64,000 nucleotides of DNA from a virus, in the IMG/VR virus record IMGVR_UViG_3300035523_000146; one strand, given 5' to 3'. Shown piece after piece: positions 1-24,087 of this stretch (the stretch's first letter is position 1; every line of letters starts with the position of its first letter). A program made the translations under genes and the position numbers. The notes below the pieces were generated by a model, which saw only the letters and a program-made list of their open reading frames with translations, searched no databases and was not told the origin of the DNA.

Positions 1-1248
1 GGCGGACATGGCGGTCGGCCCTGGAGCGAAGGCCACGATCGGATGCGAAAAAGGCATCTGCCGTTCTGGCAGCAGGCTCTGGAGATCGATCTGCTGTCGG
101 ATCTCAATGGATGTCTGCCCCGCGTCGAAACGGTTCTCCGCGATCTTCAGGATGGACGAAGCGGAAAAACCTTGCAGAACTACGCCGAATCCTTGGCGGC
201 GTTCTGCGATTGGGCCATCGAACGCGGCTATTTGGATGTCGATCCGCTCAAGAACCTGAAGAAATTCGATACGACGCCGAAGGTCGTACGCCGGGCTTTG
301 ACGGCCGACGAAGTCGCTCGCCTTCTCGCGGTTGCTTCCGGCGAACGCCGGCTGCTGTACAAGATCGCGCTGACCAGCGGTCTGCGGGCTAACGAACTTC
401 GTAGTCTACTGTTTCGCCATCTCGATGTTCCGAACAACGGTCTGCGGCTTGAAGACGGCTGGACGAAAGGCCGGAAAGCGACGTTCCAGCCGCTGCCGCC
501 GACCTTGGTCAGCGAACTGGTGGCAACCGCCGGCAGCGATCCGGCGAAGCCGCTGCTGAAAGTTCCAAAGGATACCGCCGGGATGATCTGTCGAGACCTG
601 ATCGCCGCCGGCATTCAGCGTATGACCACAGAAGGCAAAGTTGATTTCCATGCCTTACGTACGGCGTATACGACCTTCGTCTTTGAAGTCGGGGCGTCGG
701 TAAAGGAAGCCCAGACCCTCGCGCGACATTCGACGCCCGATCTCACGTTAAACGTCTACGCCAGGACGAGATCATCGCGTTTGTCGGACATCACCCAGCG
801 TGTCGGCGATGTCGTCCTTGGCGGCAGTTGTCCAACAGATGTCCAACAGCAGGCAGCGGCGGCGAACGCAAAATCTGCAAAGCAAGAGATTGAAACGACT
901 TCCGGCGGAAACGGCGTCGAGAACTCTGAGGGTTCGAGCCCCGATCATGCCGCCGTCGCTGCTGCGGACGCAACCGGACGCCAGCAGTCGATCGGTGGAC
1001 AGGAACTGACGCAAACCGGACAGCCGGAAGAACTTACGAAGACCATTGATGGTGTCCTGCGGACGCTGGCGGGCCCGGTCGAGCCCAATACCGGACGCAG
1101 CGACTGTCCAACAGATGTCCAACGGCCGATGCCTATGAGCGGCTTTTCTGGCTTCAGCGGCCTTGCGACCAGCAGCAAACAGCCTGTAAACGATGTCTAT
1201 CCCGGCTGGGCCGGTTTTTCCGGCTGGTCTGGCTGCAAAACGGCCTGA
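1..1248 (+). CDS. Tyrosine recombinase/integrase, 5'-truncated by window edge, with low-complexity C-terminal extension
   Basis: Frame is open from base 1. Catalytic motifs: LTSGLRANEL (R), KVDFHALR (HxxR), LARHS (H), LNVYAR (Y). Confidence 0.93.
   Translation, partial: GGHGGRPWSEGHDRMRKRHLPFWQQALEIDLLSDLNGCLPRVETVLRDLQDGRSGKTLQNYAESLAAFCDWAIERGYLDVDPLKNLKKFDTTPKVVRRALTADEVARLLAVASGERRLLYKIALTSGLRANELRSLLFRHLDVPNNGLRLEDGWTKGRKATFQPLPPTLVSELVATAGSDPAKPLLKVPKDTAGMICRDLIAAGIQRMTTEGKVDFHALRTAYTTFVFEVGASVKEAQTLARHSTPDLTLNVYARTRSSRLSDITQRVGDVVLGGSCPTDVQQQAAAANAKSAKQEIETTSGGNGVENSEGSSPDHAAVAAADATGRQQSIGGQELTQTGQPEELTKTIDGVLRTLAGPVEPNTGRSDCPTDVQRPMPMSGFSGFSGLATSSKQPVNDVYPGWAGFSGWSGCKTA
829..1123 (+). 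repeat. Identical 19-bp direct repeat TGTCCAACAGATGTCCAAC at 829-847 and 1105-1123; putative integrase arm-type sites
   Basis: Read directly. Each copy is a tandem pair of TGTCCAAC and both lie in the integrase 3' end. Confidence 0.75.
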
Positions 1249-3466: not shown

Positions 3467-4996
3467 TCAGTTCTGCGGTGGCCTAAACACAGTCACGGGG
3501 AGACCGAGGATCGCACCGTTATTGATGCGGAAGAAGGCCGTCGATTCTACCGGCTCGGCCCCAGCCGGGAGAGAGGGCATAGAAATTGACACGGAAACTC
3601 GCCAATTGCCGTCTTTGACTTCGTCGGCGAACTCGAGTTTCATTGGAACATTCTCGCTCCCCCAGCTCTCAAGGACACTAAACCCCCTCTTTGCGTGGCT
3701 CCCCAGACGCACAATCGCCGTACCCTCGCCACGTCCGTTGAGCGTCACTAAGGCAATCCCCGGCACCGCATGAATGTCCGCAATAATTGAACCGTTGACT
3801 GCGACCTTATGTGTTGACACGCTCCCTGCTGCCGAAAGCACGACATTCACTTCGCCTCGGAGCTCGCCAACTGGACAGTCGTTGTCTGCTTCGACCAGTA
3901 GCCGTATTATGTAGTCCTCTGGCGCAACCTTGTACCCGGCTTCGCTGCCGATTCTATGAACTGCATCGCCAACTCCGCTGCAGCTCACCGAACACCGTAA
4001 ATGCCTGAAGATGGTGAGATTCGGCGACGCGACAAACGTTGCGTGGCGTACTTGAAAACCCTCAAATCCCGGATCGCTAACGTAAAACTCTTTTTCAAGC
4101 TTGCTGCCTTGGGGCAAATCCTCCAAATTCACTCTCTGAGCAGAAAGAACCCGCGTGCGCAGGACTCCGCCAGCCATGCGCAGTACGCACAAAGGACTCG
4201 TCGGATCGTTGGTCTTTACTACAAGACTATGCATGAAATAACCTTGAGAGTTTCTGAGATCAACATCAGCTTCTATGGTGCTCGCCTGACCTTGTCCCAG
4301 TCGGGTACTTGCTATCTTAAATGCAGAGCAGCCACAACTCTTCTTTATGTCGCCGATGACCAGATCACTGCGCCCAACATTGCGAAACGAGAAGCAATAA
4401 TGGCTATGGTCTTTTTGCACGCCGTTGTCAAGAAGACAGCTATCCCATTCAATGTACGGTGCGTCACCCCCAGCTTTCGAGACAACCCTCCTTATTGAAA
4501 GCGTCTCGCCATGCCAGACATTCTCCAGTTCCAACCGTGTCAACCACCGGGCCGGCTTGGACTCCTCGTAGATACGTACGCTGTTACGCTGAAGGCCCGA
4601 TTCCCGCGGATCGACCGCAACAAAATGATTTCCGTTTACAAAGAGTACCGCCGTGCCGTCAAGACGCCTTAGGTTCTCCCAGTCAAATCGTTCGGCGCGA
4701 GCCTGGACTTCCGAGATACCTTTTGCCACCCGCTCTAAATCGGTCAAAAGGACGCCCTCTGAAGTCACGGTGCACTGCGATGACAATTGCCGAAAACTAG
4801 CAGGGACACCGAGACGCCATAATGCCATTGTGAGGCTGTACGGACCGCAGAGCATCTGCTTGTACTTTGGGTCAGCCGGGTCAAGCCTAACTGCTGCAGT
4901 TGAATCTCTTCGACTCAGCCTTGCTGCGATCAAAAATACAATCCCGAGAACGGCGATGGCAACGGCCGTCTTTGTGCGCCTTCTCTTAGACAGCAT
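3467..4996 (-). CDS. Membrane-anchored C39-family cysteine peptidase fused to a DUF1573 (Ig-like) domain
   Basis: Basic N-terminus plus TM helix; QMLCGPYSL (Gln/Cys) and GNHFVAV (His); FSFRNVGRSDLVIGDIKKSCGCS is the DUF1573 signature. Confidence 0.85.
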   Translation of the reverse strand: MLSKRRRTKTAVAIAVLGIVFLIAARLSRRDSTAAVRLDPADPKYKQMLCGPYSLTMALWRLGVPASFRQLSSQCTVTSEGVLLTDLERVAKGISEVQARAERFDWENLRRLDGTAVLFVNGNHFVAVDPRESGLQRNSVRIYEESKPARWLTRLELENVWHGETLSIRRVVSKAGGDAPYIEWDSCLLDNGVQKDHSHYCFSFRNVGRSDLVIGDIKKSCGCSAFKIASTRLGQGQASTIEADVDLRNSQGYFMHSLVVKTNDPTSPLCVLRMAGGVLRTRVLSAQRVNLEDLPQGSKLEKEFYVSDPGFEGFQVRHATFVASPNLTIFRHLRCSVSCSGVGDAVHRIGSEAGYKVAPEDYIIRLLVEADNDCPVGELRGEVNVVLSAAGSVSTHKVAVNGSIIADIHAVPGIALVTLNGRGEGTAIVRLGSHAKRGFSVLESWGSENVPMKLEFADEVKDGNWRVSVSISMPSLPAGAEPVESTAFFRINNGAILGLPVTVFRPPQN

Positions 4997-5002
4997 GCGT
5001 TC

Positions 5003-6184
5003 TTAGCCCCTTCGAATTCGGCGAACAAGCCACCATCCTAAGACGACAACAACGGCTAACAAGGCGAGTGCCCAACCTAGGGGCATAAGGTACCATGGAC
5101 GTCGCGAGGATGTGGATGTTGCCGAGTCCGGCTCCCTCTCCGTATTATTGCTCGGCCGTTCAGTCGGGCTAATCTTGGATACCCTTCGTGATGCGCTCCG
5201 GGTTGCAGCCTCTCTTACCTCATCTGGAGTGAAGACCAGCGGCGGTGAAAGTCTATAATCATGAATCGTGAGCTTAGGCGGGCGCTTCTCGATCACAGCA
5301 CTCCTGGCGTCCGCGTAGAGCTTCTCATTGAAGTTTTCCACTGCGGGATCAAATGTCACTTCATCTGACCGCTCATCGGCACCCTCGATTGGACCCAAGT
5401 AACAGCAAACTGCGCGTTCTGGAACGCAATACACACCACTCCATGCAGTCCCCTGGTTTCTTACTTCGCAGTTGACGGATTGCGGTTTTCGCTCACTGTA
5501 AAAGCGCGCTTTCCGTACCATCCATGCCGCGGCAGGATCGATTTCTAGTTCCCACCTGCCATGGAGTCCTTCAGATCGTTTCCCGTTAGCAGAAACGGCA
5601 ATATACCCGACTCCAGAATCTTTGGCCTCAGTCACTTCAGTGATATTATTTGAAAAGAAACGGCCCAAGGACCAAAATATAATATTTCTCGGTGCATTGG
5701 GTCCAACATCCTTGGGACCAAACAATGACGAATTAAGCATGTCTGCGCCTTCGGCGATTTTGTTTTCGGGGCCAATTTTCATAACCCTATCAACATAGTA
5801 GTTTCCACATGCGTCTGGGCCCCAGTACCCCCATTGCCTAGTACGGATCGAGAAAATGTGCCATCCGTTTTGATCCCTGCCGCCTACGTTACCTGCCGCT
5901 GCCAAGGCTTCGAAGGTCGGCTTCTCAAAATCCGTAACCTCTTTAACATACCCGCATCGTCCAGACTCAAAAGTCAGGCGCCACTTTCGTGTTACGCGTA
6001 TCTCGGGGCCCACGCCGTTTAAGGGGTCGTTGCTCGTTTGGGTCCCCGAGACCATCAATCCTGCCGCATAAATAGAATCATAGCGTTTTAGCTTTTCTAA
6101 AACCGCCGTCGCGTCGTGGGCATGGGTTTGGATCTGACTGCCCAAACAACCGAGTAGACAAATGGTCAACGCCGTTCGCAGCAT
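5003..6184 (-). CDS. Secreted protein with C-terminal membrane anchor
   Basis: N-terminal signal peptide; Ser/Thr/Arg-rich linker; C-terminal TM followed by RRIRRG. Confidence 0.8.
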   Translation of the reverse strand: MLRTALTICLLGCLGSQIQTHAHDATAVLEKLKRYDSIYAAGLMVSGTQTSNDPLNGVGPEIRVTRKWRLTFESGRCGYVKEVTDFEKPTFEALAAAGNVGGRDQNGWHIFSIRTRQWGYWGPDACGNYYVDRVMKIGPENKIAEGADMLNSSLFGPKDVGPNAPRNIIFWSLGRFFSNNITEVTEAKDSGVGYIAVSANGKRSEGLHGRWELEIDPAAAWMVRKARFYSERKPQSVNCEVRNQGTAWSGVYCVPERAVCCYLGPIEGADERSDEVTFDPAVENFNEKLYADARSAVIEKRPPKLTIHDYRLSPPLVFTPDEVREAATRSASRRVSKISPTERPSNNTEREPDSATSTSSRRPWYLMPLGWALALLAVVVVLGWWLVRRIRRG

Positions 6185-6202
6185 CGATGCCTCCCTTTCA
6201 CG

Positions 6203-6763
6203 TTATCCTTGTACCCCGCATCGATACCGCTTCGTCACTTGGGGAAAATCCCCATAAGGTTCCATTTCGCCGTTGCAACCATGATCGCTATAACACGGAG
6301 TGTTGGCACCGTGATTATAGGTGCCATCTGGCTCCTGAGACCAGATTTGGGCACAGTCGTATATTGGACTTGGCTGAGGAATGCCGCCATAGGTCTGGTA
6401 TGCCTGTGTCCACGAGCAAGGCATTATACGGTTGCTCACCCATTTGCTCCAATCGTTGTCATCCTCGTAGAATTCACAGGGTGGATCATCGGGGTTTATA
6501 CACGGCGTGCAATCTATCCCTCGAATGGTGATTATTGCGCACTTCTCCTTATCGCATGGTCTATTTATATAGAGATGCTTGCATTCCTCGAAATTGTATA
6601 CCTGCGTGTCGTCACAGTTTCTGCAATTGCCTATGGTGGGCCCACCATAAACCGCGAGACTCGAAGGAGCGTTCAGGCTCCACAATATGCTCCCAACTGA
6701 TAGTGCAAGGAGCACTATCACTAACGCTGCCCACCAAGCCTGCAAGAAAGTTAATCCTCTCAT
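6203..6763 (-). CDS. Cys-rich secreted protein with double-glycine motif (candidate precursor/substrate)
   Basis: Strong RBS (AGGAGG); hydrophobic N-terminus, then SSLAVYGG, then 13 Cys in about 145 residues. Confidence 0.8.
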   Translation of the reverse strand: MRGLTFLQAWWAALVIVLLALSVGSILWSLNAPSSLAVYGGPTIGNCRNCDDTQVYNFEECKHLYINRPCDKEKCAIITIRGIDCTPCINPDDPPCEFYEDDNDWSKWVSNRIMPCSWTQAYQTYGGIPQPSPIYDCAQIWSQEPDGTYNHGANTPCYSDHGCNGEMEPYGDFPQVTKRYRCGVQG

Positions 6764-6922
6764 TTGAAATCCCCTCCTATCGGATCCTTGCGCCTAGACA
6801 TCTCCAAGAACCGCCCCTGTACAGCAAGGCTGTACTGTATCTTCCTTCTAACGTCAGCCAGCACCCGTCGCAGGCCTCACGGCCGCTTAGCAAGAAGAGG
6901 CATGAGGCGCAGATTCAACTGA

Positions 6923-8065
6923 TCAAATTCTCTTCCAAGTCACCTCCCTGTCAAATCTAAGGACATGCTGCGCACTCTGTTGGGCGCTGTCGACTGATGG
7001 AATCCAAGAGGTGTGGCCCTCTGCGCTTATGCGCAGGCGCAAATCCTTTAGTTGCTCTACAGCGTTGATCCAGATTAGCCCCTCTCCGTTTTCCACCCCA
7101 AAGATCACTTGGCCGTCGACCACGAAGAGTTCAACGGGTGCTTGCAGAAACCACTCTCGGACGTTATCTAGCCTGCCATGAGCCCACATGGGTCGCTCGC
7201 CACGCGGCTGAAGTTCCGGACTTCTATAGGGCGGAACTTCTACGAGTGCCACACGAGGGGAATTGTCCAATCCAGCAAGCTCTTCGGTTATCTTCCGGTA
7301 CTTGGGCATCGCCAGTTGGCAGTGCGGACAGCTCCGATCGTACAACACGATAATCCATGCACCTTTGGCCAGATCCTCGCTGATCTTAATGTGCCGAAGC
7401 AGGGGGAAACGCCCGCCGACCCACTGCGTAGGCTCCAGCAAAACGAAAGGACTCTTACCGATAAGCTCGCCATCTGTTGAGAGCTGGGCCGGGCGAGCAA
7501 GTGCCATCACGAGCGCTGACGAAGTACACAGGAACAAGCCAAGTACCGCGACGGTCGCTCCTCGCCATCGCTGTACCCGCATCTTGATATTTCTTGGCGG
7601 ACACATGACAAGAGCAATGAGGAACAGTAGATCAAGGGTCAAGGTGTAGCTTGGCGGTACCTCGGCTTTTCCAAAACATCCGCAGCTCAGATCACCATGC
7701 CATACTTTATACGCGCTCGCACACGCGAAAACAGTGAAACACAAGATGCTCACCTGCCACGTTAGGCGCCTCCAAAGCCCACCGACTAAGCAGAGCGCCA
7801 ACACAAACTCGAACTCGACCAAGGCAATCAGCACCCATCGCGACGCAATGAGACTGTTCTGCATCAACGGGCTAGTTGCCAAATGATAGGCTTTCATGGT
7901 CGCTGCGGTAAGCAATACAGTTGCGAGCAAAATACCGATTACTCTATGTGTGTCAAGTGCCCTCTGTGCAGTACGCCCTTCCTGTATAGTTTCCTTCGCA
8001 ACGCAACCCCTACGAGCTGCTGCCTCGGATGGCATCACGATGTCCAAGGACGGCTCACCGATCAT
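6923..8065 (-). CDS. MauE/DoxX-family membrane protein fused to a thioredoxin-like domain
   Basis: Several TM helices with DLSCGCFG; C-terminal WIIVLYDRSCPHC (CxxC). Confidence 0.85.
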   Translation of the reverse strand: MIGEPSLDIVMPSEAAARRGCVAKETIQEGRTAQRALDTHRVIGILLATVLLTAATMKAYHLATSPLMQNSLIASRWVLIALVEFEFVLALCLVGGLWRRLTWQVSILCFTVFACASAYKVWHGDLSCGCFGKAEVPPSYTLTLDLLFLIALVMCPPRNIKMRVQRWRGATVAVLGLFLCTSSALVMALARPAQLSTDGELIGKSPFVLLEPTQWVGGRFPLLRHIKISEDLAKGAWIIVLYDRSCPHCQLAMPKYRKITEELAGLDNSPRVALVEVPPYRSPELQPRGERPMWAHGRLDNVREWFLQAPVELFVVDGQVIFGVENGEGLIWINAVEQLKDLRLRISAEGHTSWIPSVDSAQQSAQHVLRFDREVTWKRI

Positions 8066-9918
8066 GGCGCAGTCCCCTTGCTAAGCGTCAGGGAATTGGA
8101 CTCAACTGGAATGCTTTTAATCAGGCGCTGCTCCCAACGCTTGACCTCTGGGAGAAATGGCGACTCCGGATACTGATGCCTAATGAACCGCAACACACGC
8201 AACGCGTCAGTGTATTGGCAGCGAGCGAGGAGACCCATTGCCGCGGCATAGTAGAGTTCCGCGCCCAACGGATGTGCCGGAAACTTCTCGAAGAAGCTCT
8301 TCTGCAGTTCGCTTGCTTCGTCGAATCTCAGGAGCCTACGATTTGCCACCCAATCGATGTACAGCAGCTCCGGCAGGCACTCCCGGCATCGCTCATCTTG
8401 AACCCGTTCAATCGCCTCTGCGACAACTTGCTCAAAGGCGTGCTCTTCAAAAAGATATCTCAATCGCAACGTGGCGGCCTTGGCGTAATGACAGTCTTGA
8501 GCAGCGTCGGTGAGAATCTGGCGCAATAGGTCAATCGCTTCCTTTGGCGAACCCGTGTCGTGCATCAATTCTGCAATTCTCAACCGCAGAGATATGGAGC
8601 GTTCCTTGGAATTGGTGGACAGCGCAGCTTCAAGGGCCAGCTTGAGGTAATATAACCCTGTCGGATATTCCCGGTTCCGCAGCATTAGGTCAGCGCCCTG
8701 CTCTAGGCAGTCCAAGTAGCCTTCAGGAGAGGGCCTCCGGTGCGGGCCCAGGCACTGCGAACACGCATAAGCAGTTCGAGGATACCGTGCAGCGAAGGCG
8801 AATTCCTCCAGTACTGACAGAACCTCCTTTTCCCGCAGCCAACTGGGAAGGTTCGCGATGCTGCGTTCCGACCAACCTTCATCTGCGCAGCTCAGCAACG
8901 GAATCACAAGCGATAGACGCCGGACTTCGGCGGCATTTCCATATGTTGTAGTTCGCGCCTCCTCCCAAACTGCTTCATTTAGACCTTTCACACTTGCAGC
9001 GTAATAGGCTTGCATAACTTTCTGGTCTGCGGAGCTCAAAGCGGCCAACGCCAAGTCGTTCTTGAACGCCGCGCTGTTCCTGGTGAGAAGTGTCAGTGCC
9101 GAGATGGTGTGCCCGGCGGATTCGCCTGCAGTCTCGCCCGCCAGCGCAGCCTTTCGATTCAGATATGACGCACGATGAGACGACAAATTCCTGAACACAG
9201 TTGCTACTATATCATCAAGAAGGACGACCTTTCGCTGAAATGCCTGGACATCCTTATCCTTCGAATATTGACTTAAAATCCTATCATAGTCAGACTGATA
9301 CTCTGCGCAAGCTTGCTGCCGAATGCGCCTTACCGCCTCAGCATCGCGCGCGCTAACGCACGGCGTGAAACCCGTGCACACGAGGATCGCCAGCGCCAAG
9401 ATGATTGAACAAGCTCTCTTGGGCGGACGAAAACAGAGTCTGAACATTCCGGAGCATGCGCCGAATGGGGCGGTGCCGCTGACACGATAGCTACAGCACA
9501 ATGCAAAAGACGCACACGCCATCAAGACAAACGAACGACAAAGCGTTACGATGCTGACGTGGTCGTCACCGAAACCAAGGCCGCAGCCGCACTGTACTGA
9601 AAGTCCTCGATAAAGTACGCTCGCCTGCGCAATGCCAAAAACCGCGAACATAAGAGCGCAAATTGTTAGAGCCAAGCACCGGCATGCGCCGCCGATAAGG
9701 CAGATGCTTAACAGAAACTCCACCCAGGGCAGAACGATAGCAATCATCGTGGCAGGCACCGGGGTCAGGAGTTCGTACCCATAGATGCTGGTGAGAAACG
9801 CGGCAGGCGCGGTGATCTTTGGGATACTGGTCCATAGCAGCAACGCGCCAAGTCCGAGTGTTACCACTCGGCTTGCGCAGCAGTTTACCCTCCCCCAGCG
9901 CATGTAAAGATCACTCAT
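8062..9918 (-). CDS. MauE/DoxX-family membrane protein fused to a TPR-like helical domain
   Basis: KITAPAAF...LPWVE...SVQCGCG in the TM region; C-terminal helical repeats (FFEKFPAHPLG, IRHQYPESPF); 4-bp overlap with the next gene. Confidence 0.8.
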   Translation of the reverse strand: MSDLYMRWGRVNCCASRVVTLGLGALLLWTSIPKITAPAAFLTSIYGYELLTPVPATMIAIVLPWVEFLLSICLIGGACRCLALTICALMFAVFGIAQASVLYRGLSVQCGCGLGFGDDHVSIVTLCRSFVLMACASFALCCSYRVSGTAPFGACSGMFRLCFRPPKRACSIILALAILVCTGFTPCVSARDAEAVRRIRQQACAEYQSDYDRILSQYSKDKDVQAFQRKVVLLDDIVATVFRNLSSHRASYLNRKAALAGETAGESAGHTISALTLLTRNSAAFKNDLALAALSSADQKVMQAYYAASVKGLNEAVWEEARTTTYGNAAEVRRLSLVIPLLSCADEGWSERSIANLPSWLREKEVLSVLEEFAFAARYPRTAYACSQCLGPHRRPSPEGYLDCLEQGADLMLRNREYPTGLYYLKLALEAALSTNSKERSISLRLRIAELMHDTGSPKEAIDLLRQILTDAAQDCHYAKAATLRLRYLFEEHAFEQVVAEAIERVQDERCRECLPELLYIDWVANRRLLRFDEASELQKSFFEKFPAHPLGAELYYAAAMGLLARCQYTDALRVLRFIRHQYPESPFLPEVKRWEQRLIKSIPVESNSLTLSKGTAP

Positions 9919-9948
9919 CAGTCAAACACCTTTGGCCCGAGCCAGCCG

Positions 9949-11202
9949 CTAAGGACCAGACGGCCCAGTCCATCTCACCCAGCCGTCGCCATAGAGCACT
10001 GAATCAGCGTAGCCCTCTTGCATCAGCAGGCCCATCAAGTACCGTCCTCTGCCGCATTGGGCAGAGTTGCAGTACACCGCAACTTTCTTGTCTTTGGGAA
10101 TACCCGCCATGTTCAATCGCACGCGACTAGCCTCATTCGCAGGACAGTTTATCGCTCCTTTGATATGCCCGATGGCAAACTCGCCTCTATTGCGCGCATC
10201 AATGAACAAAGTGCCCTCTGAATGCAAGCGCAACGCCGCTTCAAGCGAGACAGCCCTTGTATCAATGCAACCACTTTGCCAGTTCTTGCGAAGGAGAAAT
10301 TCCATAGGGTCTAGGCCATCATCAGAAGCAGGTCGGGCCGCGTATACCACCAGACCGTTTCCAGAAAGCAACCGAACACTACACCCTAGGATGGCTGCGG
10401 CGACCAAGAATAGCACCGCTTGCAAGGTCACTGGAAGCGGCCTAAGCTGTATAGCGCGCTTTGCAAACTGAAGGCGCGCGCGCCCAATCCCCAAAATGCC
10501 AACGGCAGCCGTTAGCCACAAAGCAATGGTCGGCAGGTACAATTTGTAACGATATCTGCGCAGGTCGATTTCGGCATCAGAAGCAGAAAAAACTAATGTT
10601 TCACCTCGCCATCGCGTGGCTAGCGCCTCTAGCGGCACAACCTTCTCCATGGCGGGTGGGTTAAAAATGCGCGCCGTTTTCTCGGCAATACCCAGGCAGA
10701 CAATATAATGATCTGTGCTGGTAGAATAACGGCTGCCTTGTACGTGTAGAATAGCGGGCCCCGTCGCACTGCACAACTGGGCGGGAGAGAGGTCATCGTA
10801 TAATTGGACGCTGAGCCCGTGTTGCTTTGCAAGCAGGGCTAGACTGTTTGCAGTCGCACCGTTCTGTGGCAGATTCTTAGACAGCAACAGGCGCGACATA
10901 TCGATCGGTCTACCGACAGCAGCGCTCGCTCTTTGAATGCACTCCACGGCCGAATAGTCTACAGTTCGTTCTAGGTTGCCCGGATCACCGCTGGGCATTG
11001 TGAAACCGTTGGATAATGAAGCTGCCACCGTTGGCTTGGAGAGCAAGGAGCACATAAGCAAGGACACGACACATGCTCGGATTGCATCTTCCATCATAAA
11101 GCACGCATTGCCGGACGCAACGTCTCGCCGTGTAACCGGGGCGGAAGCGAACCAACTCAAAAGTGATGGCGGCAGACCGCTCATGGCTGCGCCCCTAGAC
11201 AT
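9949..11202 (-). CDS. Degenerate C39-like domain + TM helices + rhodanese domain
   Basis: AILHV...DHYIVCLG...IFNPP is C39-like; LFIDARNRGEFAIGHIKGAINCP and VAVYCNSAQC mark the rhodanese. Start codon uncertain. Confidence 0.8.
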   Translation of the reverse strand: MSRGAAMSGLPPSLLSWFASAPVTRRDVASGNACFMMEDAIRACVVSLLMCSLLSKPTVAASLSNGFTMPSGDPGNLERTVDYSAVECIQRASAAVGRPIDMSRLLLSKNLPQNGATANSLALLAKQHGLSVQLYDDLSPAQLCSATGPAILHVQGSRYSTSTDHYIVCLGIAEKTARIFNPPAMEKVVPLEALATRWRGETLVFSASDAEIDLRRYRYKLYLPTIALWLTAAVGILGIGRARLQFAKRAIQLRPLPVTLQAVLFLVAAAILGCSVRLLSGNGLVVYAARPASDDGLDPMEFLLRKNWQSGCIDTRAVSLEAALRLHSEGTLFIDARNRGEFAIGHIKGAINCPANEASRVRLNMAGIPKDKKVAVYCNSAQCGRGRYLMGLLMQEGYADSVLYGDGWVRWTGPSGP

Positions 11203-12185
11203 TGCTGTTTCTTTGCGGGCTCGGTGCTTGGCGATCGCGTCCGAGGGGCACTGCTGGTTGGTGCCCCTGGAACTAGGACGGTAACGCGCTTTCGAATCCT
11301 ATCCACTGAACGATTTGAGGCGTCTTTAATCAGAGGTGCACGATCCGTTGCGCCGATCGCACGCAACTTGTCCGCATCATCAAGATCGCCGAGATCGCCA
11401 ATTGCGGCGATTGCTACCATTCGGAGGTAGGCGCTCTTGGGATTTGTATCTTCGCTTAGCTTGCGGCACACCGCAAGAGCGTCTGGCGCTCTTAGGCAAG
11501 CGCAGGATTGTACACCAGCAATACGTACTAGCATTTCAGCATTCTCGTCCCGCAGCGCCGTTAGGCACATCTCATGGATTCGCGCAGTTGTCTTTGCATC
11601 TGGAAGTTTGCTGGCGTCCCGACTAGATGCGATGCGCGCGAGTGACCAGAGCGCACCCGCGACAACCATGTTTTCTTCATCTTCAGCAGCCTCCATGAGG
11701 GTCTCTAGGATCTCTCGATCGCCGAAAGTGATGAAGTAAGTGTATAAGTGTTGAACGCAGTAGTTGCGCCACTTTGGCGTTTCCTGCGCATCCCAGAGCA
11801 TCGCCGTCAAATCTTTGACCAGATGCTCTTCTTGCCACCCTCTTAGTTTATCGGCCACGTTATTGCGCACGCCTTCGTTTTCGCTTCGTCGCCAAAGGCA
11901 CTGGCGCAATGCCGCCAAGGTTTCGGCGGAACGCGCTGTTGATGGGACATCATCCACCGCCTGCATGCGTGCTGCTACCGAGAGCTTCTTGTTAAACACT
12001 GCGGCAAGCTCTGCCGGCAGCTTAGCGCGATCTAGCGGGCTGTCGGCCAATCGAGTTTCACATTGAGTATTGGAGGGAGCTTGAACAGCGGTAGTGCGAA
12101 TGGGGAAATGCGCAGTAGCAAACGAGAGCAAAAGCGCGAGCGCGCCCAGGAAGAACCAAAGCAGATGCCTGCGCACGTAATTCAC
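11181..12185 (-). CDS. HEAT-repeat protein with N-terminal signal/TM
   Basis: Hydrophobic N-terminus; repeated helical units (VRNNVADKL, WRNYCVQHL, VRIAGVQSC, LRMVAIAAIG). Confidence 0.8.
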   Translation of the reverse strand: MNYVRRHLLWFFLGALALLLSFATAHFPIRTTAVQAPSNTQCETRLADSPLDRAKLPAELAAVFNKKLSVAARMQAVDDVPSTARSAETLAALRQCLWRRSENEGVRNNVADKLRGWQEEHLVKDLTAMLWDAQETPKWRNYCVQHLYTYFITFGDREILETLMEAAEDEENMVVAGALWSLARIASSRDASKLPDAKTTARIHEMCLTALRDENAEMLVRIAGVQSCACLRAPDALAVCRKLSEDTNPKSAYLRMVAIAAIGDLGDLDDADKLRAIGATDRAPLIKDASNRSVDRIRKRVTVLVPGAPTSSAPRTRSPSTEPAKKQQCLGAQP

Positions 12186-12268
12186 AAGTGTACCCTATTC
12201 CTACTCTAAGTTGCGGCGCGAATCGGCTCATATCAAGTTGCACCAAGAGCCACAGCCGAATCTTCCTT

Positions 12269-15200
12269 CTACGGGCAGATTTCGATGGTTGGATCACATG
12301 GACACTCGTTGACCGTGGGGTTGCACCAGCTTTGTGCGTAGATGACTACAGGATCCTCTTCGGTGATGTCAATCGTATGGCACCCGTGATCCGTTCCTGG
12401 CGCGAAGTACAGGGAATACGGCAGGTAACCTGCTGAAGTAAAGTCACTGGTATGATAGGCTATGGAAGAGACACCCCCATCGAAGGCCACACCTGCGCTT
12501 CTTATGCTTAACGTGATTTCAATCGAGGGATCGTCCGTGATTAACGGCGTCATCTTGAGGTAGGCCACGCAAACCTTCGTGCCGTCATCAAGCGTATGGT
12601 CCAAGGCGACCGCGGTCCGGGCTGTTGAACAGAACGTAAAGCCCTCGACCACCTGCCACGCGATGATTGGTCCCGCGGGACCGCCCACTCGTGCAACGAG
12701 ACTCGGCCTGTCCGCTCCCTGCGGCGAAAGATTGAGCGCGGCGCCTGTTGCCGTAGTTTCCTTCACAGATATGACCAAAGACGGGCCGCTTCCGGAAAAC
12801 GTAATACTTGAAGTAGCGGCGGGGGGATAGACGCTCGCATCCTTCTGGCGGGTGAAGCCAATTTGGCAGGCGATTGGACCATTGATCCCAACATCGACAA
12901 CGGTAACGCCAAATGTTCCGACGACAACACCGTCAATCAAAGCTGTCGCGACGTATGTGCCTGCGGTGGCGTACGTAAATGGGAACAAGGATCCAGGGGA
13001 TCCAGTAAAGTCCAACGTTCCGTCACCATCAGCATCAATTGCCAAAACATCGCCTGTACCACTTGCGCTAAGCAGCAGGGCGTCGCCCTTGCGAATCACA
13101 ATACTGTCAGAACTCGATTCCTTGGTTGACAGATCGGTCACTTGCCAAGTTACGCATGACGACTTAGCAATTCCGCTCCCTGCGTGGTTGATCGTGATGG
13201 GAGTCGCCGTGCCATCGCTGTTGAGGGGCGCGTTCACGAACCACCCATTGTCGCTGATGAAGGTTGGCGCCAGATCGCCACATGGCGCGGTTACCGTGAG
13301 AGCGTACGGCAAACCGGTCGTGGACCACGCTTGACCTTCGACGAAGGTCGGCGATACGACCGAAGAGCCCGCAATGCTCACGGTCATGCCCGCGCCAGGG
13401 TAAAGTTGTGTTTGCGGGACGACGCTCTTGCTCGTACTGGCGCTGCTCCACAGCAACTGTGCGACGGCAAGACCTGTGTGCTCAAAATATTCAAGCTTGA
13501 TTGGCACCTTTACACCCGCCGTAAGCGAGATTGATGCGCTGGAGTACTCCGTGGACTGATCGCGCCACTCATCTACCACGAGTTGATCTCCCACCCACAG
13601 CCGCACACCATCGTCGCATCGGACGTAGAAAGTATATGCCTCGGAGTATTGCGCCTCAACCTCGCCGATCCAACGAACGGAGAAATTGTCAGGACTAATC
13701 GCTTCATCGGGCGCATTCAAGCCCCAGTCAAAGGCTACAACGGGATCAACTTGCAGGAGCAGTGCCGTGCCAGAAAGGTCACGGGTGTTATAATAGCTTC
13801 CCTGGAGCCCCGTGCCGGTGCCGATCAACATGGCGCTGCCCGTAGAGTAGAGCTGCGTTTGAGGGATCAAGTTCTTTGGCGTTAGCGAACTACTCCAAGC
13901 CAGCCCGGCATTCGCGCCGCCACCGCTCTGGAAGTACTCCATCTTGATATCGTACTTCTGGCCAGCAACAAGCGAGATCGTGCCGCTCCATTCTGTGTTG
14001 CCCTGTAGCTGCCATTTGTCGATCAGCAGTTGCCCATTCACCCACAGCCGCGCACCGTCATCCGTCCAGGTATAGAAGGTGTAGGTGTCCGTGTACTGCG
14101 CTTGGACTTGGCCAACCCACCGCACGGCGAAGTTGTCCCGGCTCACGTTGGCGTCGGGAGCATTGGTATTCCAATCGAAGCCGACCTGCGGATCCACTCG
14201 CGTGACGACTGCCGGAGTTCCCAAGTCCGCGCGATTGAAATACTGCCCAAGCAGACCATCGCCGGTCCCTACAACCATCTTGTTGGAAGTGGAATACAAT
14301 TGGCTTTGCGGGATCACCTGCTTGTCCTGGCTCGGCGATGACCAGAGCAGTTTGGCAACCGAGCCACCCGTGCCCTGAAAATATTCCATTTTAACATCAT
14401 ACTTCTGGCCGGCCTCAAGCGCGATATCGCCTGTGTTTTCTGTCGGCCAATGGGCCGTCCAGTTGTCGATGAGGAGAACATCGTTCACCCAAAGACGCAC
14501 GCCGTCATCCGAGACCGTATAAAAGGAGTACGTTTCCGAGAACTGCGGCTCGACTTGGCCCAGCCAGCGGACGCTGAAACTGGTGCTACTGACGCCAGTG
14601 GCGGGAGTGCCGCCCACCCAATCGAAGTTCACCGTGGCGTCCACTTGGTCGGCGATGACCGGGCCGTTTAGATCGGCGGTGTTGAAATAGTAGCCGGCAA
14701 GTCCATCGCCAGTACCCAAAGGAGGGTTATACGCGGCGAGGGAGACGTTTCTGAATTCGGCCTTGCTGGTCGCAAAATCGCTGCGGTGCGGCGTAACGGC
14801 CATCCCGACGAGAACGGGGTCGGTCAAATTAAGGGTGACGGAGTCGACCGGGAACCACACTACGCCATCGCTGGAAATGTGCCCCGTAATCTGATTGCCG
14901 GCTCTTGTCAGACGCACCCAACTGTTCGGCGCTGAATTCCAGCCACCCGAAGTCGCGCTGGTCTGCGCTGCGACGGTGTCGCGGTGCTGGAAGACAAACC
15001 CATTTCCGGCGCTCGCTAACATAATGGCGTTGACGCTGTTGCGGTCGCTTGACTGCCGCACCATGAGGCCCGCTTTGGCCCAGCCATCTGAGTTTTCAAG
15101 GGATGCGATACGGGCGCGAATGTCGAAATTGCCTGAGTAGGATTGCGACACAAAGCGGAAAGCGTCCTGCGTGCCCCAGATGTCGTCGCCCACGCCGACC

Positions 15201-15328
15201 ACGTCGTAGCTCGCTGCGTCGATCTGTGTGGTTGACCCGCCTGGAATGTCTTGAGAGCTAAACTCGCCAGCGCAAACGGCGAGTGCCAAAACGCAGCAAG
15301 TGCAAACGGCAAGTGAAGGCAGTCTCAT
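12269..15328 (-). CDS. Secreted protein with lectin-like N-domain, three PA14 domains and a Cys-containing tail
   Basis: Signal peptide; three copies of FSVRWxGQV...YTFY..SDDG.RLWV; DADGDGTLD Ca-binding-like motif. Confidence 0.9.
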   Translation of the reverse strand: MRLPSLAVCTCCVLALAVCAGEFSSQDIPGGSTTQIDAASYDVVGVGDDIWGTQDAFRFVSQSYSGNFDIRARIASLENSDGWAKAGLMVRQSSDRNSVNAIMLASAGNGFVFQHRDTVAAQTSATSGGWNSAPNSWVRLTRAGNQITGHISSDGVVWFPVDSVTLNLTDPVLVGMAVTPHRSDFATSKAEFRNVSLAAYNPPLGTGDGLAGYYFNTADLNGPVIADQVDATVNFDWVGGTPATGVSSTSFSVRWLGQVEPQFSETYSFYTVSDDGVRLWVNDVLLIDNWTAHWPTENTGDIALEAGQKYDVKMEYFQGTGGSVAKLLWSSPSQDKQVIPQSQLYSTSNKMVVGTGDGLLGQYFNRADLGTPAVVTRVDPQVGFDWNTNAPDANVSRDNFAVRWVGQVQAQYTDTYTFYTWTDDGARLWVNGQLLIDKWQLQGNTEWSGTISLVAGQKYDIKMEYFQSGGGANAGLAWSSSLTPKNLIPQTQLYSTGSAMLIGTGTGLQGSYYNTRDLSGTALLLQVDPVVAFDWGLNAPDEAISPDNFSVRWIGEVEAQYSEAYTFYVRCDDGVRLWVGDQLVVDEWRDQSTEYSSASISLTAGVKVPIKLEYFEHTGLAVAQLLWSSASTSKSVVPQTQLYPGAGMTVSIAGSSVVSPTFVEGQAWSTTGLPYALTVTAPCGDLAPTFISDNGWFVNAPLNSDGTATPITINHAGSGIAKSSCVTWQVTDLSTKESSSDSIVIRKGDALLLSASGTGDVLAIDADGDGTLDFTGSPGSLFPFTYATAGTYVATALIDGVVVGTFGVTVVDVGINGPIACQIGFTRQKDASVYPPAATSSITFSGSGPSLVISVKETTATGAALNLSPQGADRPSLVARVGGPAGPIIAWQVVEGFTFCSTARTAVALDHTLDDGTKVCVAYLKMTPLITDDPSIEITLSIRSAGVAFDGGVSSIAYHTSDFTSAGYLPYSLYFAPGTDHGCHTIDITEEDPVVIYAQSWCNPTVNECPCDPTIEICP

Positions 15329-16860: not shown

Positions 16861-18561
16861 CTACCGCGCAAACTCCAAAAACGGCAGTTCGCCAGTCCGA
16901 CGGTCAGTGCAGGACGCCGCCACCTTCTCATCGATTCCCCACTTTGATGGGTACTTGGGCGTATCAAGGGGCTCCAATGAAGGCCGAAACTTCTGCTTTA
17001 TCCGCGTGCGACCAAACAGCCCAGAAACTTCCGGGTGCCGCACCCTCGCGTACTTGCTAATCTCGCAGAACAGATTCTGACAATCGATGTATTGCAGTGG
17101 CCGCCCCCAAAGCGTCTGGAATTCAAGGCCGCGCTCAGAAAACTCGGATTCCTGGCGTTCGCATACCAGCTTGATGATTTCGGTCTCATTGAGTCCGCCC
17201 AACGAGTCGAAGCACTTGCGGATGCCGTCCCGAGCTCCAGGACCCGGAACGACGAATTCCCTCTCGGAGAAATCTGTTACCGAGCTGTAGTTGATGTCGG
17301 TGACGTATTGATATGCAAGAAAGTCTCCGATCATGGGGTAATCGCGCAGCAACAAGAAAGCCTCAGACATCCTGCGGCAATCTGCTAGCCGCATCGGCAA
17401 CTCATCACGTAGCATTCGCTGGAGAAGAATTAGAAATGAGCGATGCTTCCTTCCGCCATCGGCGTCACGATCTCCCGACGGCATAATGTATGCGGCCGAA
17501 AAAATCCTGCGCCCGGATTCAAGAGCGCTCGTCAAGATTCTGTCGTAGCGTTTGAAATCAAACTCCGCTGCGCTGATCGCCCCCAACTTGCTTTTGATCA
17601 GCCGCCACGTTTCGATCTTATTGAATATCTTGAACAAAAGCACCCTGAACACGACTTCGTTGATGTGCTGGCTTCCTTCATCAATGACGTAACGAATAAG
17701 GAACTGGCTCGCACGATCCGAAGCCCTATAGGCGTTTGTAAACTTGTTGACCGCCAGGATCGGATCTTCGGTCCATGGCGGCGGTGTGCCACGGAGACGC
17801 CGGAAAAAGATCGCTTGTCGTTCCGTGGCAAACCGCCAGAAGGTATCGTACACCAACGTTGTTTTTGCCGGAGCCAGGGAACTGAATCCGTATGGCGCGT
17901 GCGCCCGCTCCGCAGGCGATGCCTCCCGGCAATTTGTTGCGACGCGATTGGCGCCGCCACTGTCAACGGGAGACGCAGCGCGCAAGATCTGCGCAAATGC
18001 ATCCTGTATCGTGTGGTTGTTGTCCACCGAAACGACGAGGTAATTTTTCGCCTCGCGCCGAGCGAGTGCCTCGTATGCCGTTTGGAGCCGGATCCAGAGA
18101 TCCTCTTTTTCTGGTCGCAGTGGCACTCCCCGTTGAATAACGAAGACGGCTGTGGGTTTCAGATCGCCCCACGCTTCGAGTTCCAAGTCGATGAGTTTCC
18201 GCAGGAGCGAAGCATTGGCGCCTCCCACCACGCCGTATACTTCCGTGGACCACCAGAATCTATCCAGGACAACACTGCGGCCTTCAGTCAGCGCTGGGAT
18301 AATGCTGCGCTGGATGGTATCCAGATGCGCGGCCACATGAAGCATCTGCAGGATAGCGGGATCGAATTGCTTTATCCCAAATCTGCCAGGATCATGGTGC
18401 AGATCGTATACGTGCTTTCCGAGAGTTCCTGGATCGCGCCCAGGAAAACTCAGCGCCAAAGAAGCGATGTCGGATCGTGCCAAATAGTCCGAGAACCGCT
18501 TGCACAGCTCCGACTTGCCAACACCGTCCGGACCTTCGAAAACGTAAAGCCGTCCTGTCAC
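16861..18561 (-). CDS. Thymidylate-kinase-like domain fused to a 5-hmdU DNA kinase helical-type (aGPT-pyrophosphorylase clade 1) domain
   Basis: VFEGPDGVGKS P-loop and VLDRFWWS (dTMP kinase); FWRFATERQAIF...PPPWTEDPIL...FTNAYRASDR is the helical-domain signature. Confidence 0.85.
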   Translation of the reverse strand: MTGRLYVFEGPDGVGKSELCKRFSDYLARSDIASLALSFPGRDPGTLGKHVYDLHHDPGRFGIKQFDPAILQMLHVAAHLDTIQRSIIPALTEGRSVVLDRFWWSTEVYGVVGGANASLLRKLIDLELEAWGDLKPTAVFVIQRGVPLRPEKEDLWIRLQTAYEALARREAKNYLVVSVDNNHTIQDAFAQILRAASPVDSGGANRVATNCREASPAERAHAPYGFSSLAPAKTTLVYDTFWRFATERQAIFFRRLRGTPPPWTEDPILAVNKFTNAYRASDRASQFLIRYVIDEGSQHINEVVFRVLLFKIFNKIETWRLIKSKLGAISAAEFDFKRYDRILTSALESGRRIFSAAYIMPSGDRDADGGRKHRSFLILLQRMLRDELPMRLADCRRMSEAFLLLRDYPMIGDFLAYQYVTDINYSSVTDFSEREFVVPGPGARDGIRKCFDSLGGLNETEIIKLVCERQESEFSERGLEFQTLWGRPLQYIDCQNLFCEISKYARVRHPEVSGLFGRTRIKQKFRPSLEPLDTPKYPSKWGIDEKVAASCTDRRTGELPFLEFAR

Positions 18562-19349
18562 GCCGTCGTCTCCTGGGAGCGGAGAATCGCGCGCAGATCT
18601 GTCGCGAAGTCCTGAAGATCCTCTTTACTCCGCCGCCCACGCGCGCCGACAGAAGCGACACATGTAAGCTGCGTCAGCCGAAGTCCCATTCGAGCGGCCA
18701 TGAACTTCCCAAGTCGGCATAGGCCGAGGTAGTTGCCGTATGCGCGTTCGAAGAAGAACTGGGTCGCGTAAAAACCGGTTACGCACAAGCCGTCCTGACC
18801 GACTGGTGCGAAGTTCACCTGCTGAAGACAAGGAAAGCCCAACTGTCGATTATTGCTGTGGTCGCGCGTCGGATCAAAAACCGATGCGATGAGGGCACTA
18901 CGACGATGATTTCCGCTGCGGTACGTGTCTACAATGTGCGTTAGCTGATCGACGGGCTTCAGGACTGAGTCTTCCGGCTGGTATGCTGTGAGACGCCTGA
19001 AGTAGACGCCGTACTTATTCGCCGGGCATTTCTTGATCATCGCCCAGATCCGTCCATACCGTCCCAACACGTGTGCTCCTCCATCGTCCAGCGACGGGTT
19101 CCACAACGAAATCGGAAAAATCGTGTTGGCGACCGTGTGGCACTTAGCTCGCTCGAAACGCTCTAGCTCCTTGTCCAACCGCTCACGGATCGCATCATTT
19201 TCTATGGCGGTACCGTTATCGAAAGCATGGACACGTACAATTAGCGGAGTCAGCTCGTCGATGCCGGGCTCCATCAGCCGCAGAAAGGCCTGTGCCCATG
19301 CCACTGACAAATTCGTGCTTGAGGGAATAAACCAGTCACTCGCCATCAC
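18558..19349 (-). CDS. Divergent thymidylate-synthase-fold protein
   Basis: YFRRL...DQL..IV, SVFDP, GFPCLQQV (catalytic Cys) and YGNY; lacks RSND and the terminal HxY. Confidence 0.7.
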   Translation of the reverse strand: MMASDWFIPSSTNLSVAWAQAFLRLMEPGIDELTPLIVRVHAFDNGTAIENDAIRERLDKELERFERAKCHTVANTIFPISLWNPSLDDGGAHVLGRYGRIWAMIKKCPANKYGVYFRRLTAYQPEDSVLKPVDQLTHIVDTYRSGNHRRSALIASVFDPTRDHSNNRQLGFPCLQQVNFAPVGQDGLCVTGFYATQFFFERAYGNYLGLCRLGKFMAARMGLRLTQLTCVASVGARGRRSKEDLQDFATDLRAILRSQETTA

Positions 19350-23980: not shown

Positions 23981-24016
23981 ACGTAATGCAAAAACGTAAT
24001 GCAAACGTAATGCAAA
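23981..24016 (+). repeat. Three tandem ACGTAATGCAA repeats, putative integrase arm sites
   Basis: Copies start at 23981, 23994 and 24005, about 25 bp upstream of the tRNA-Leu fragment. Confidence 0.75.
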
Positions 24017-24041
24017 TCAGGCTACTTAATTGGGTACGAGT

Positions 24042-24087
24042 GGGACTTAAAATCCTTTCAGTGTGGGTTCGACTCCCATCCCGGCTA
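24042..24087 (+). tRNA. 3' fragment of tRNA-Leu(TAA) (att scar, not a functional tRNA)
   Basis: GGGA-CTTAAAA-TCC anticodon arm and GTGGG-TTCGACT-CCCAT T-arm; no matching 5' acceptor strand or D-arm. Confidence 0.7.

Follow-up and report, generated by a model that had tools for sequence, protein, structure and literature searches.

The stretch of DNA studied here (64,000 nt of virus record IMGVR_UViG_3300035523_000146, below called the window) contains, between positions 3467 and 15328, eight co-oriented open reading frames (ORFs) on the minus strand that fill this interval and were numbered g1 to g8 in the direction of transcription. The last three encode a small Cys-rich protein with a double-glycine-type motif (g6), a protein with a predicted LolA/LolB fold (g7) and a protein composed of a C39 peptidase domain and a DUF1573 domain (g8). 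A preliminary description of the sequence had regarded all eight genes as one extracytoplasmic system by which the Cys-rich protein is folded, cleaved and displayed without an ATP-binding cassette (ABC) transporter. The observation of the cluster was confirmed. Its interpretation holds in part: what is conserved as a unit in planctomycetes is a rare module of three genes, g6-g7-g8, and not a system of eight.

The genes are tightly packed, the spacings from g1 to g8 being +83, -22, +30, -4, +159, +18 and +6 bp (i.e., two overlaps). The ORF list, Pfam and NCBIfam bear out the domains assigned to them earlier, and with the same libraries no ABC, radical-SAM or other tailoring domain was found in the eight proteins, as had been noted. 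None of the eight has a match in PADLOC. Signals or transmembrane (TM) helices had been claimed for all eight proteins. A hydropathy scan agrees for seven, in which an N-terminal or internal hydrophobic segment is present; for g7 it shows a C-terminal TM helix only, and the N-terminal signal peptide that this protein seems to possess rests on its sequence and on a helix modelled at residues 2-15. The lower GC content of the cluster in comparison with its flanks and the presence of an integrase gene nearby were also described correctly (0.548 versus 0.591 for the remaining window). The GC content of g6-g8 is 0.525, the second lowest among 122 intervals of 3.3 kb. The gap between g5 and g6 contains a small hairpin and, 8 nt ahead of the ATG of g6, the strong ribosome-binding site AGGAGGGG; the end of g5 is overlapped by a promoter-like site. 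These elements are compatible with transcription of g6-g8 apart from the upstream genes. A further promoter-like site lies ahead of g1; both sites are consensus matches only. No RNA sequencing run containing the locus was found; the single run in which this DNA was detected is the soil metagenome from which it probably derives.

The genomic context of these genes was compared in metagenomic relatives and in 401 Planctomycetota genomes drawn evenly across the phylum. The order g6-g7-g8 is present at 11 independent loci (the window; L001/L007; L002-4; L005; L016; the P0015, P0057 and P0108 contigs; the genomes G096 and G226; L036), whose neighbourhoods are otherwise unrelated, with different flanking genes at each. 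Relatives of g8 are few and share 38-49% identity with it over the full length. Each of them for which upstream DNA is available is directly preceded by a g7 homologue, often with a 4-bp overlap, and g7 in turn by a small Cys-rich gene. The same pattern is found around relatives of g7 and around the remote g6 members P0097 and P0108 (E 1.5e-6 for P0108). A gene for a C39-DUF1573 protein lies directly downstream of g7 in 14 of the 16 places checked; in loci with two modules a diverged g7 copy takes the position before g8, and at L015 no C39 gene lies beside g7. The g6 profile matches three of the 401 genomes (G001, G096 and G226). Full-length g8 is confined to the same three, the remaining matches covering the DUF1573 domain alone, and g7 is present in these three and in G014, where it is located at a contig end and adjoins an N-terminal remnant of g8. 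In both G096 and G226, g6, g7 and g8 are adjacent and in this order. No ABC domains were found beside the trio in the other loci.

Table 1. Features of the window, with positions counted from its first nucleotide (domain E-values from Pfam)
Feature	Position	Strand	Description
Integrase gene	43-1248		
g8	3467-4996	-	509 aa; Peptidase_C39 (E 1.6e-11) and DUF1573 (E 4.2e-13)
CGC motif of g8	4328-4336	-	Cys221-Gly-Cys223 in DUF1573 domain; both Cys invariant in 10 members
C39 peptidase domain of g8	4490-4858	-	residues 47-169
Codon of Cys50 of g8	4847-4849	-	predicted catalytic Cys
g7	5003-6184	-	393 aa; no Pfam match; LolA/LolB fold in model
g6	6203-6763	-	186 aa; Cys-rich, predicted secreted; no Pfam or NCBIfam family
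Gly40-Gly41 codons of g6	6641-6646	-	proposed cleavage site, LNAPSSLAVYGG/PTIGNC
g5-g6 gap	6764-6922	-	159 bp
Hairpin in g5-g6 gap	6819-6835		small
Promoter-like site at end of g5	6954-6927		consensus match only
g5	6923-8065	-	380 aa; MauE (E 1.3e-11) and thioredoxin-like part
CPHC motif of g5	7319-7330	-	thioredoxin-like domain
CGCFG motif of g5	7676-7684	-	MauE domain
g4	8062-9918	-	618 aa; MauE (E 7.1e-17) and TPR-like helical part
g3	9949-11202	-	417 aa; Peptidase_C39 (E 1.4e-10) and Rhodanese (E 8.8e-14)
g2	11181-12185	-	334 aa; HEAT_2 (E 4.7e-15); N-terminal hydrophobic signal or anchor
g1	12269-15328	-	1019 aa, secreted; PA14, three stretches (E 1.4e-85)
C-terminal tail of g1	12269-12400		short, Cys-rich
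Promoter-like site ahead of g1	15429-15402		consensus match only
Kinase fusion gene	16861-20199		dTMP-kinase domain and PF18723 (E 1.7e-105)
tRNA-Leu (TAA)	24015-24087		complete (ARAGORN)

A two-module layout is present in two distant lineages (L001/L007, 4764-11569, and the P0057 contig). There, g6-g7 are followed by genes for a 175-207 aa protein, a DUF1573-only lipoprotein (367-375 aa) and a diverged g7-like protein, and finally by g8. Large multi-pass membrane proteins are encoded beside the trio at two loci (L001, 2445-4250, a PMT_2 glycosyltransferase-like protein; L005, 6269-8335, 688 aa, without a Pfam match), and a link of the trio to protein glycosylation is possible.

The remaining genes of the cluster do not share this conservation. 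Homologues of g1-g4 were not found within 10 kb of the trio at any other locus examined, and a search for related loci with g4 alone returned nothing. The full-length architecture of g3 is present once in the 401 genomes, in G226, where it is followed by a gene for a 159-aa MauE protein; this pair is located on a different contig from the trio of that genome. Near the trio, a g5 homologue is encoded in L005/L006 only; it shares 39% identity with g5 over 287 residues, contains the motifs CGCFG and CPQC, and lies two genes downstream of g8. A search with g5 in G014 and in the three genomes that have a trio detected no homologue. At L016, two genes away from the trio, the minus strand (8103-10163) encodes a further thiol-redox neighbour, a Thioredox_DsbH/Thioredoxin_7 protein of 686 aa. 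Of the genes named earlier for a synteny search, the C39-DUF1573 and Cys-rich genes occur together at all 11 loci, and MauE-thioredoxin joins them in one other lineage only. The locus is composite and consists of the trio, an occasional redox companion (g5), a separate pair (g3-g4) and unlinked neighbours (g1-g2).

The g6 protein contains 13 Cys residues. A word-index search with g6 alone found only g6 itself, and a profile search was needed to define its family. A profile built from four trio-linked sequences and run against 1.84 billion cluster representatives revealed 72 representatives at E<=1e-3 (44 at E<=1e-10), all of 114-227 aa. For the 41 members compared, neither Pfam nor NCBIfam has a matching model. 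In the alignment of 41 sequences 11 Cys are invariant and two more are present in at least 90%; we count 12 Cys as conserved. In every member, the motif and the first Cys pair, C-K-x-P-C, are preceded by a basic n-region and a hydrophobic core, suggesting that g6 carries a Sec-type signal peptide and then a short propeptide, [DE]-[FL]-x-x-[VL]-[FY]-G-[GA]. The AlphaFold model (predicted local distance difference test, pLDDT, 81.8) consists of a helix at residues 6-31, a disordered linker at 32-42 that holds the motif, and a beta-rich domain at 47-182. Fold searches with this model against the PDB, AFDB clusters, wide VIA and the ESM Atlas gave nothing above noise (best scores: Foldseek against the PDB, E 0.19; wide VIA, Z 2.8; Atlas, TM-score at most 0.36; the Atlas feature search was empty). 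Weak archaellin and pilin matches reflect the helix-plus-beta-domain arrangement only, and kinship with methylamine dehydrogenase's small subunit was rejected, as there is no fold match.

The classical consensus of double-glycine leaders is E-L-x-x-I-x-G-G. Counted back from the residue before the proposed cut, 40 g6 sequences have Ala or Gly at -1 in 38 cases (Gly, Ala or Ser in 39), Gly at -2 in all 40, Tyr or Phe at -3 in 22, Val, Leu, Ala or Ile at -4 in 35, Phe, Leu or Val at -7 in 27, and Asp or Glu at -8 in 21. The motif thus agrees with the consensus in the acidic residue at -8, the hydrophobic residues at -7 and -4, Gly at -2 and Gly/Ala/Ser at -1, and the Gly at -2 is the sole invariant non-Cys residue within the first 46 residues of the alignment. 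The g6 motif differs from double-glycine leaders in its location, as it is not placed at the extreme N-terminus and a Sec-type signal precedes it. A site of the (-3,-1) type, V-Y-[SAG]/Y, is present in 22 of the 40 sequences at a distance of 13 residues upstream of the motif, making a two-step processing of g6 plausible. Other readings of the GG motif were rejected. A signal peptidase I site does not fit the aromatic residue at -3 and a hydrophobic core at least 15 residues away, a lipobox would require Cys at +1, and in a prepilin site Gly comes before the hydrophobic helix rather than after it. The conservation of the motif and its position in the modelled linker suggest that g6 is cleaved here. 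In the paper on FapF, the core of the double-glycine motif is given as (l/v)-x-GG (PMC5557850).

The C39 domain of g8 scores 44.6 bits (that of g3, 41.6 bits) against a cut-off of 22 for Pfam PF03412. Cys50 (in CGP-x-SL), His124 (in NH[FY]) and Asp129 are invariant in all ten family members, and position 144, within R-[IV]-Y-[ED]-[PE], is Glu or Asp in all of them and is the counterpart of the 'xDP' motif of C39 peptidases. These residues were assigned by family conservation and known C39 motifs, not by a structure-based alignment; no C39 structure was retrieved from the PDB by sequence, whether the g8 family profile or only the C39 domain served as query. The DUF1573 domain (49.6 bits; cut-off of PF07610, 26.1) is Ig-like and is followed by further beta domains. 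A sub-threshold match of g8 to the NCBIfam OS_HP2 (seleno)protein was also obtained. DUF1573 selenoproteins have a UGC sequence at the position of the CGC motif (PMC9312934), which argues that the CGC of DUF1573 is redox-active and makes it a candidate redox site in g8.

A single N-terminal TM helix of g8 is preceded by five and followed by three Lys/Arg residues, and at L001 a DUF1573 domain is part of a protein with a lipoprotein-type signal. Judging from these features, the C39 domain of g8 is most likely located outside the cytoplasm. In database gene calls, g8 begins at Met48 (462 aa) and lacks the TM helix, and g7 (350 aa) begins at an internal Met. However, the homologues align through the longer N-termini; the long ORFs of g8 and g7 are thus real, and automatic annotation hides the anchor of the one and the signal peptide of the other. 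Small stand-alone C39 proteins (166-196 aa) with an N-terminal TM anchor are encoded in a Bacteroidota metagenome-assembled genome and in another uncultured bacterium (L008, 9764-10354, and L009, 7606-8106; the L009 gene comes after one for a small membrane-anchored protein). C39 domains that face outward may thus have a wider occurrence than the trio.

The model of g7, built with 46 homologues, has a pLDDT of 88.4 and contains a LolA/LolB-fold domain at residues 22-316, with an open beta-barrel and a helical plug. The best structural matches include LolB of Porphyromonas gingivalis (9tpm; Z 14.9, 217 residues aligned, root-mean-square deviation 3.7), DUF1329 (4z48; Z 14.3), LolA3 (Z 13.8) and RseB (Z 8.3), with a Foldseek E-value of 7e-7; no sequence family in Pfam or NCBIfam matches g7. 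The domain is followed by a low-confidence Pro/Ser-rich linker, the TM helix (residues 369-387) and a basic tail of four Lys/Arg. Among the fold matches of the g7 model in AFDB are one entry named DUF1573 domain-containing protein and one named thioredoxin domain-containing protein. The former, A0A3L7TLZ2 (706 aa), matches the LolA-fold model over residues 36-440. The two names hint at fusions of the LolA-fold domain with these domains, but they refer to entire entries and are no proof of a fusion, and the hint at a functional link between g7 and g8 is weak.

The genome G226 possesses, in addition, a diverged second trio on contig C100 (L033, 1016-4533, minus strand). Its C39-DUF1573 protein is a paralogue of g8 (24% identity) with CPC in place of CGC, and the 440-aa protein encoded with it has a signal sequence, a C-terminal TM helix and an RRRR tail. 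The third protein is Cys-rich (158 aa) and starts with a signal peptide ending at AVA/S, after which comes ALTEEEIAGIWGS/AC. This sequence (R-A-L-T-E-E-E-I-A-G-I-W-G-S/A-C) is a near-textbook double-glycine leader and more canonical than that of g6; Leu occupies position -12, Glu -8, Ile both -7 and -4, Gly -2 and Ser -1. Profile-profile comparison revealed no relation of the Cys-rich protein and the 440-aa protein to the g6 and g7 families. The motif stays with the peptidase though the cargo differs, and this is the strongest argument for the motif being the recognition site.

The peptidase and its presumptive precursor were also modelled together, as had been proposed earlier, using residues 35-185 of g8 (C39 domain) and residues 26-186 of g6. 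Three runs gave scores of 0.04, 0.35 and 0.68 (median 0.35), the best control being 0.02, and the result was graded as weak support. In the calibration, 58 of 80 solved complexes and two of 110 mismatched pairs attained the mark, and the range up to 0.60 contained only seven of the 80 solved complexes together with both passing mismatches. The runs share at least 42% of contacts, with a partner pLDDT of at least 57. The prediction nudges the odds and settles nothing.

On balance we favour, if only by a modest degree, the view that g6-g7-g8 are the core module of a composite locus and that the C39 domain of g8 processes exported g6 at the G-[GA] motif. The reading as an ABC-independent, outward-facing system is supported, on a predicted topology, and so is that of g6 as a Cys-rich protein with a double-glycine-type motif: the motif is conserved throughout the family, and the gene is always found beside a C39 peptidase gene. 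In the proposed pathway, g6 would be exported by Sec and cut by signal peptidase I at the V-Y-[SAG]/Y-type site, leaving a propeptide of ~13 residues that ends with [FY]-G-[GA]. The C39 domain of g8, held by the N-terminal helix on the outer face of the inner membrane, would then cut after G-[GA], in a counterpart of the cytoplasmic cleavage of double-glycine leaders by ABC-fused C39 domains. The 12 conserved Cys of g6 would form disulfides, perhaps with the help of the CGC motif of the g8 DUF1573 domain or of general oxidases of the cell, and in the genome represented by the window perhaps through the adjacent MauE-thioredoxin protein g5. The LolA-fold domain of g7, tethered by its C-terminal helix, may act as a chaperone, a carrier or an immunity partner. 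The genes g3-g4 would be a second thiol-redox pair, brought next to the trio on an island of low GC content, with g1 and g2 as unlinked neighbours. We put forward with somewhat greater reserve, and would not be surprised to see it fail, the broader proposal that Planctomycetota possess an undescribed Sec-dependent, ABC-independent double-glycine pathway, in which a membrane-anchored periplasmic C39-DUF1573 peptidase, always paired with a tail-anchored LolA-fold protein, would strip a short GG-type propeptide from exported Cys-rich substrates of at least two families that show no detectable similarity in sequence, one of them with a predicted fold that has no known relative. No description of a C39-DUF1573 protein, of the trio or of a Sec signal combined with a double-glycine propeptide was found in the literature, although such absence is not proof.

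Several observations speak against the favoured reading. The oxyanion-hole Gln expected ~6 residues before the catalytic Cys is not conserved, being replaced by Lys or Arg in most relatives of g8; Gln47 of the window g8, which the preliminary description had counted as an intact C39 residue, is not kept in the family. The g6 of the window itself has Pro after GG, and its upstream positions fit the consensus worse than those of most members, and the propeptide would be shorter than most classical leaders. The complex prediction passed only weakly, with one of three runs at 0.04. The role of g7 is a guess from its predicted fold, and g5, missing from most trio loci, cannot be required. The Gln, the Pro and the weak complex score would all fit a trio that is real but in which G-[GA] is no C39 site. 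In this case, g8 would have another substrate or a redox or scaffold role based on its CGC motif, and the g6 motif would serve folding or binding to g7; the substrate of FapD, a periplasmic C39 protein of Pseudomonas, is undefined despite GG/GA motifs in Fap proteins (PMC5557850). We regard this as unlikely, because the Cys, His and acidic residues are invariant in a family 38-49% identical to the window g8, the motif fits the double-glycine consensus at five positions and is placed in a disordered linker, and a Cys-rich protein unrelated to g6 carries it too, next to a C39-DUF1573 paralogue. A role in conflict, which is compatible with processing of g6 by g8 and differs from the favoured reading in purpose, appears about equally unlikely. 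Here, g6 would be the precursor of a large disulfide-rich bacteriocin or toxin, g7 the tethered immunity protein and g8 the activating protease. The patchy distribution (3 of 401 genomes), the variable flanks, the low GC content of the trio and its location near an integrase gene and DNA-modification or defence-like genes would suit such a function, and double-glycine leaders are typical of bacteriocins. Nevertheless, neither PADLOC nor any toxin or immunity family in Pfam and NCBIfam is matched, the module has no component for export through the outer membrane and only a single g6 copy, and the LolA fold is no known immunity fold.

A single system of all eight genes dedicated to folding, cleaving and displaying the Cys-rich protein, as originally suggested, is less probable still. 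Co-orientation, tight spacing with two overlaps and the predicted outward-facing nature of all products would agree with it, as would the thiol-redox genes near the trio at two other loci (MauE-thioredoxin at L005/L006 and the DsbH-type thioredoxin at L016). However, only g6-g8 co-occur elsewhere: g1-g4 were not found within 10 kb of the trio at any other locus examined, no g5 homologue was detected in G001, G096, G226 or G014, and the g3-MauE pair of G226 and its trio are on separate contigs. In the window, moreover, a 159-bp gap with its own ribosome-binding site and a promoter-like site comes before g6. The 'display' of the Cys-rich protein is unsupported. That the trio is a chance juxtaposition or a product of mis-called ORFs can practically be dismissed; the shorter database calls for g8 (462 aa) and g7 (350 aa) would point in this direction, but the homologues align through the longer N-termini, and order and co-occurrence are kept across 11 loci. 

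Redox motifs are present in neighbours of the trio. The MauE part of g5 (45.3 bits; cut-off of PF07291, 27) contains CGCFG, and a fifth TM helix, preceded by five Lys/Arg, leads to a thioredoxin-like domain with a CPHC motif. This domain has no Pfam match; all 18 of its weak sequence matches in the PDB are thioredoxin-fold proteins, the best being PDI A4 (E 0.0015). The CPHC motif is the active site of E. coli DsbA. Judged by these motifs, g5 is probably a self-contained periplasmic disulfide oxidase that resembles a fused DsbB-DsbA pair. The MauE domain of g4 (62.4 bits; cut-off 27) has CGCG, with the CGC at residue 110, and likewise a fifth TM helix; it is combined with a TPR-like helical domain whose TPR matches are below the curated cut-offs. 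In g3, a signal-like segment precedes a C39-like domain; two TM helices, joined by a basic loop, and a rhodanese domain in which the active-site Cys is retained complete the protein. The C39-like domain and the rhodanese domain are each predicted to be periplasmic. As had been suspected, the C39-like domain of g3 has lost its nucleophile and the Asp: Ser84 and Asn (Y-S-A-V-E-C-I and I-F-N-P-P) replace the catalytic Cys and Asp, whereas its one relative, from G226, keeps CGxxC and Asp (Y-C-G-I-Y-C-L and L-Y-D-P-P). This suggests binding rather than cleavage by g3.

The last ~380 residues of g1 have no family match and include a short Cys-rich tail (CNPTVNECPCDPTIEICP) at the C-terminus. Beyond g1, a gene encodes a fusion of a dTMP-kinase domain to the helical domain of a 5-hydroxymethyldeoxyuridine (5-hmdU) DNA kinase. 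It adjoins a gene for an IrrE/M78 peptidase, and a DNA-modification or defence-like operon borders the cluster. A complete tRNA-Leu gene was detected farther along the window.

In the textbook view, double-glycine leaders are cytoplasmic export tags read by ABC-fused C39 domains. In the trio, peptidase and candidate substrate are genetically fixed as a pair, with a clear candidate motif for cleavage, and the specificity of extracytoplasmic C39 enzymes becomes directly testable with it. Three families without a Pfam or NCBIfam model were defined, i.e., the 12-Cys protein, whose predicted fold matches nothing, the LolA-fold partner and the full C39-DUF1573 architecture. The trio is also an example of how disulfide-rich proteins may mature in Planctomycetota, and the adjacent MauE-CPHC fusion g5 is a candidate for the proposed MauE disulfide pathway acting on a natural 12-Cys client.

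Some parts of the locus have counterparts in known systems. The g7 protein shares its predicted fold with LolA, LolB and RseB, without membership in their sequence families; those proteins are soluble or lipid-anchored, whereas g7 is tethered by a C-terminal TM helix. The C39-like domain of g3 lacks the nucleophile, as do the C39-like domains of RTX exporters such as HlyB. In contrast to the latter, the domain of g3 is predicted to lie in the periplasm and shares a chain with two TM helices and a rhodanese domain, and the one relative of g3 keeps the Cys. C39-like toxin domains are known from polymorphic toxins as well (PMC3482391). MauE replaces DsbB in E. coli by means of a CXC motif, usually C-G-C-F-G, which is located between helices 3 and 4 on the periplasmic side; a fusion to a thioredoxin-fold domain is reported for 8.2% of MauE entries (bioRxiv 10.64898/2026.03.05.709764). 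In likeness to the pairs MauE/MauD and DsbB/DsbA, g5 combines a MauE domain (CGCFG) with a thioredoxin-like CPHC domain, via its fifth TM helix. In the mau cluster, MauE and MauD mature methylamine dehydrogenase's small subunit, which has six disulfides. The neighbourhood of g5 and g6 recalls this arrangement by analogy, not by homology. The g5 gene is no constant partner of the trio, and g6 has neither fold nor sequence similarity to the methylamine dehydrogenase small subunit.

As for the peptidase, C39 domains have been described as parts of ABC exporters (PMC10318531). Peptidase-containing ABC transporters (ComA, CvaB, PCAT1) share with the trio the C39 Cys and His and a substrate with an acidic residue at -8, hydrophobic residues at -7 and -4, Gly at -2 and Gly, Ala or Ser at -1. 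However, the trio has no ABC transmembrane or ATPase domains, its peptidase is predicted to be outside the cytoplasm, and g6 is a protein of ~140 residues with 12 Cys and a Sec signal before the motif rather than a small peptide. The closest likeness is that to FapD from the Fap system of Pseudomonas, a Sec-exported periplasmic C39 protein whose active-site Cys is needed for secretion of Fap amyloid; its target is undefined, and the class to which it belongs 'has yet to be characterised' (PMC5557850). FapD thus sets a precedent for an active C39 peptidase that Sec exports to the periplasm. Like FapD, g8 is not ABC-fused and would be exported by Sec to the periplasm. FapD is a soluble single-domain protein encoded in the fapABCDEF operon together with an outer-membrane channel, whereas g8 has a membrane anchor, and its C39 domain shares a chain with DUF1573 and further beta domains. 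No fap genes (for FapF or amyloid subunits) were found in the window cluster or the related loci. Unlike FapD, g8 is paired with a LolA-fold protein and with a candidate substrate carrying a double-glycine-type motif. With FapD as the known precedent, the ABC-independent extracytoplasmic reading of the locus survived testing and was strengthened by the conservation of the motif, the co-occurrence of the three genes and the second trio.

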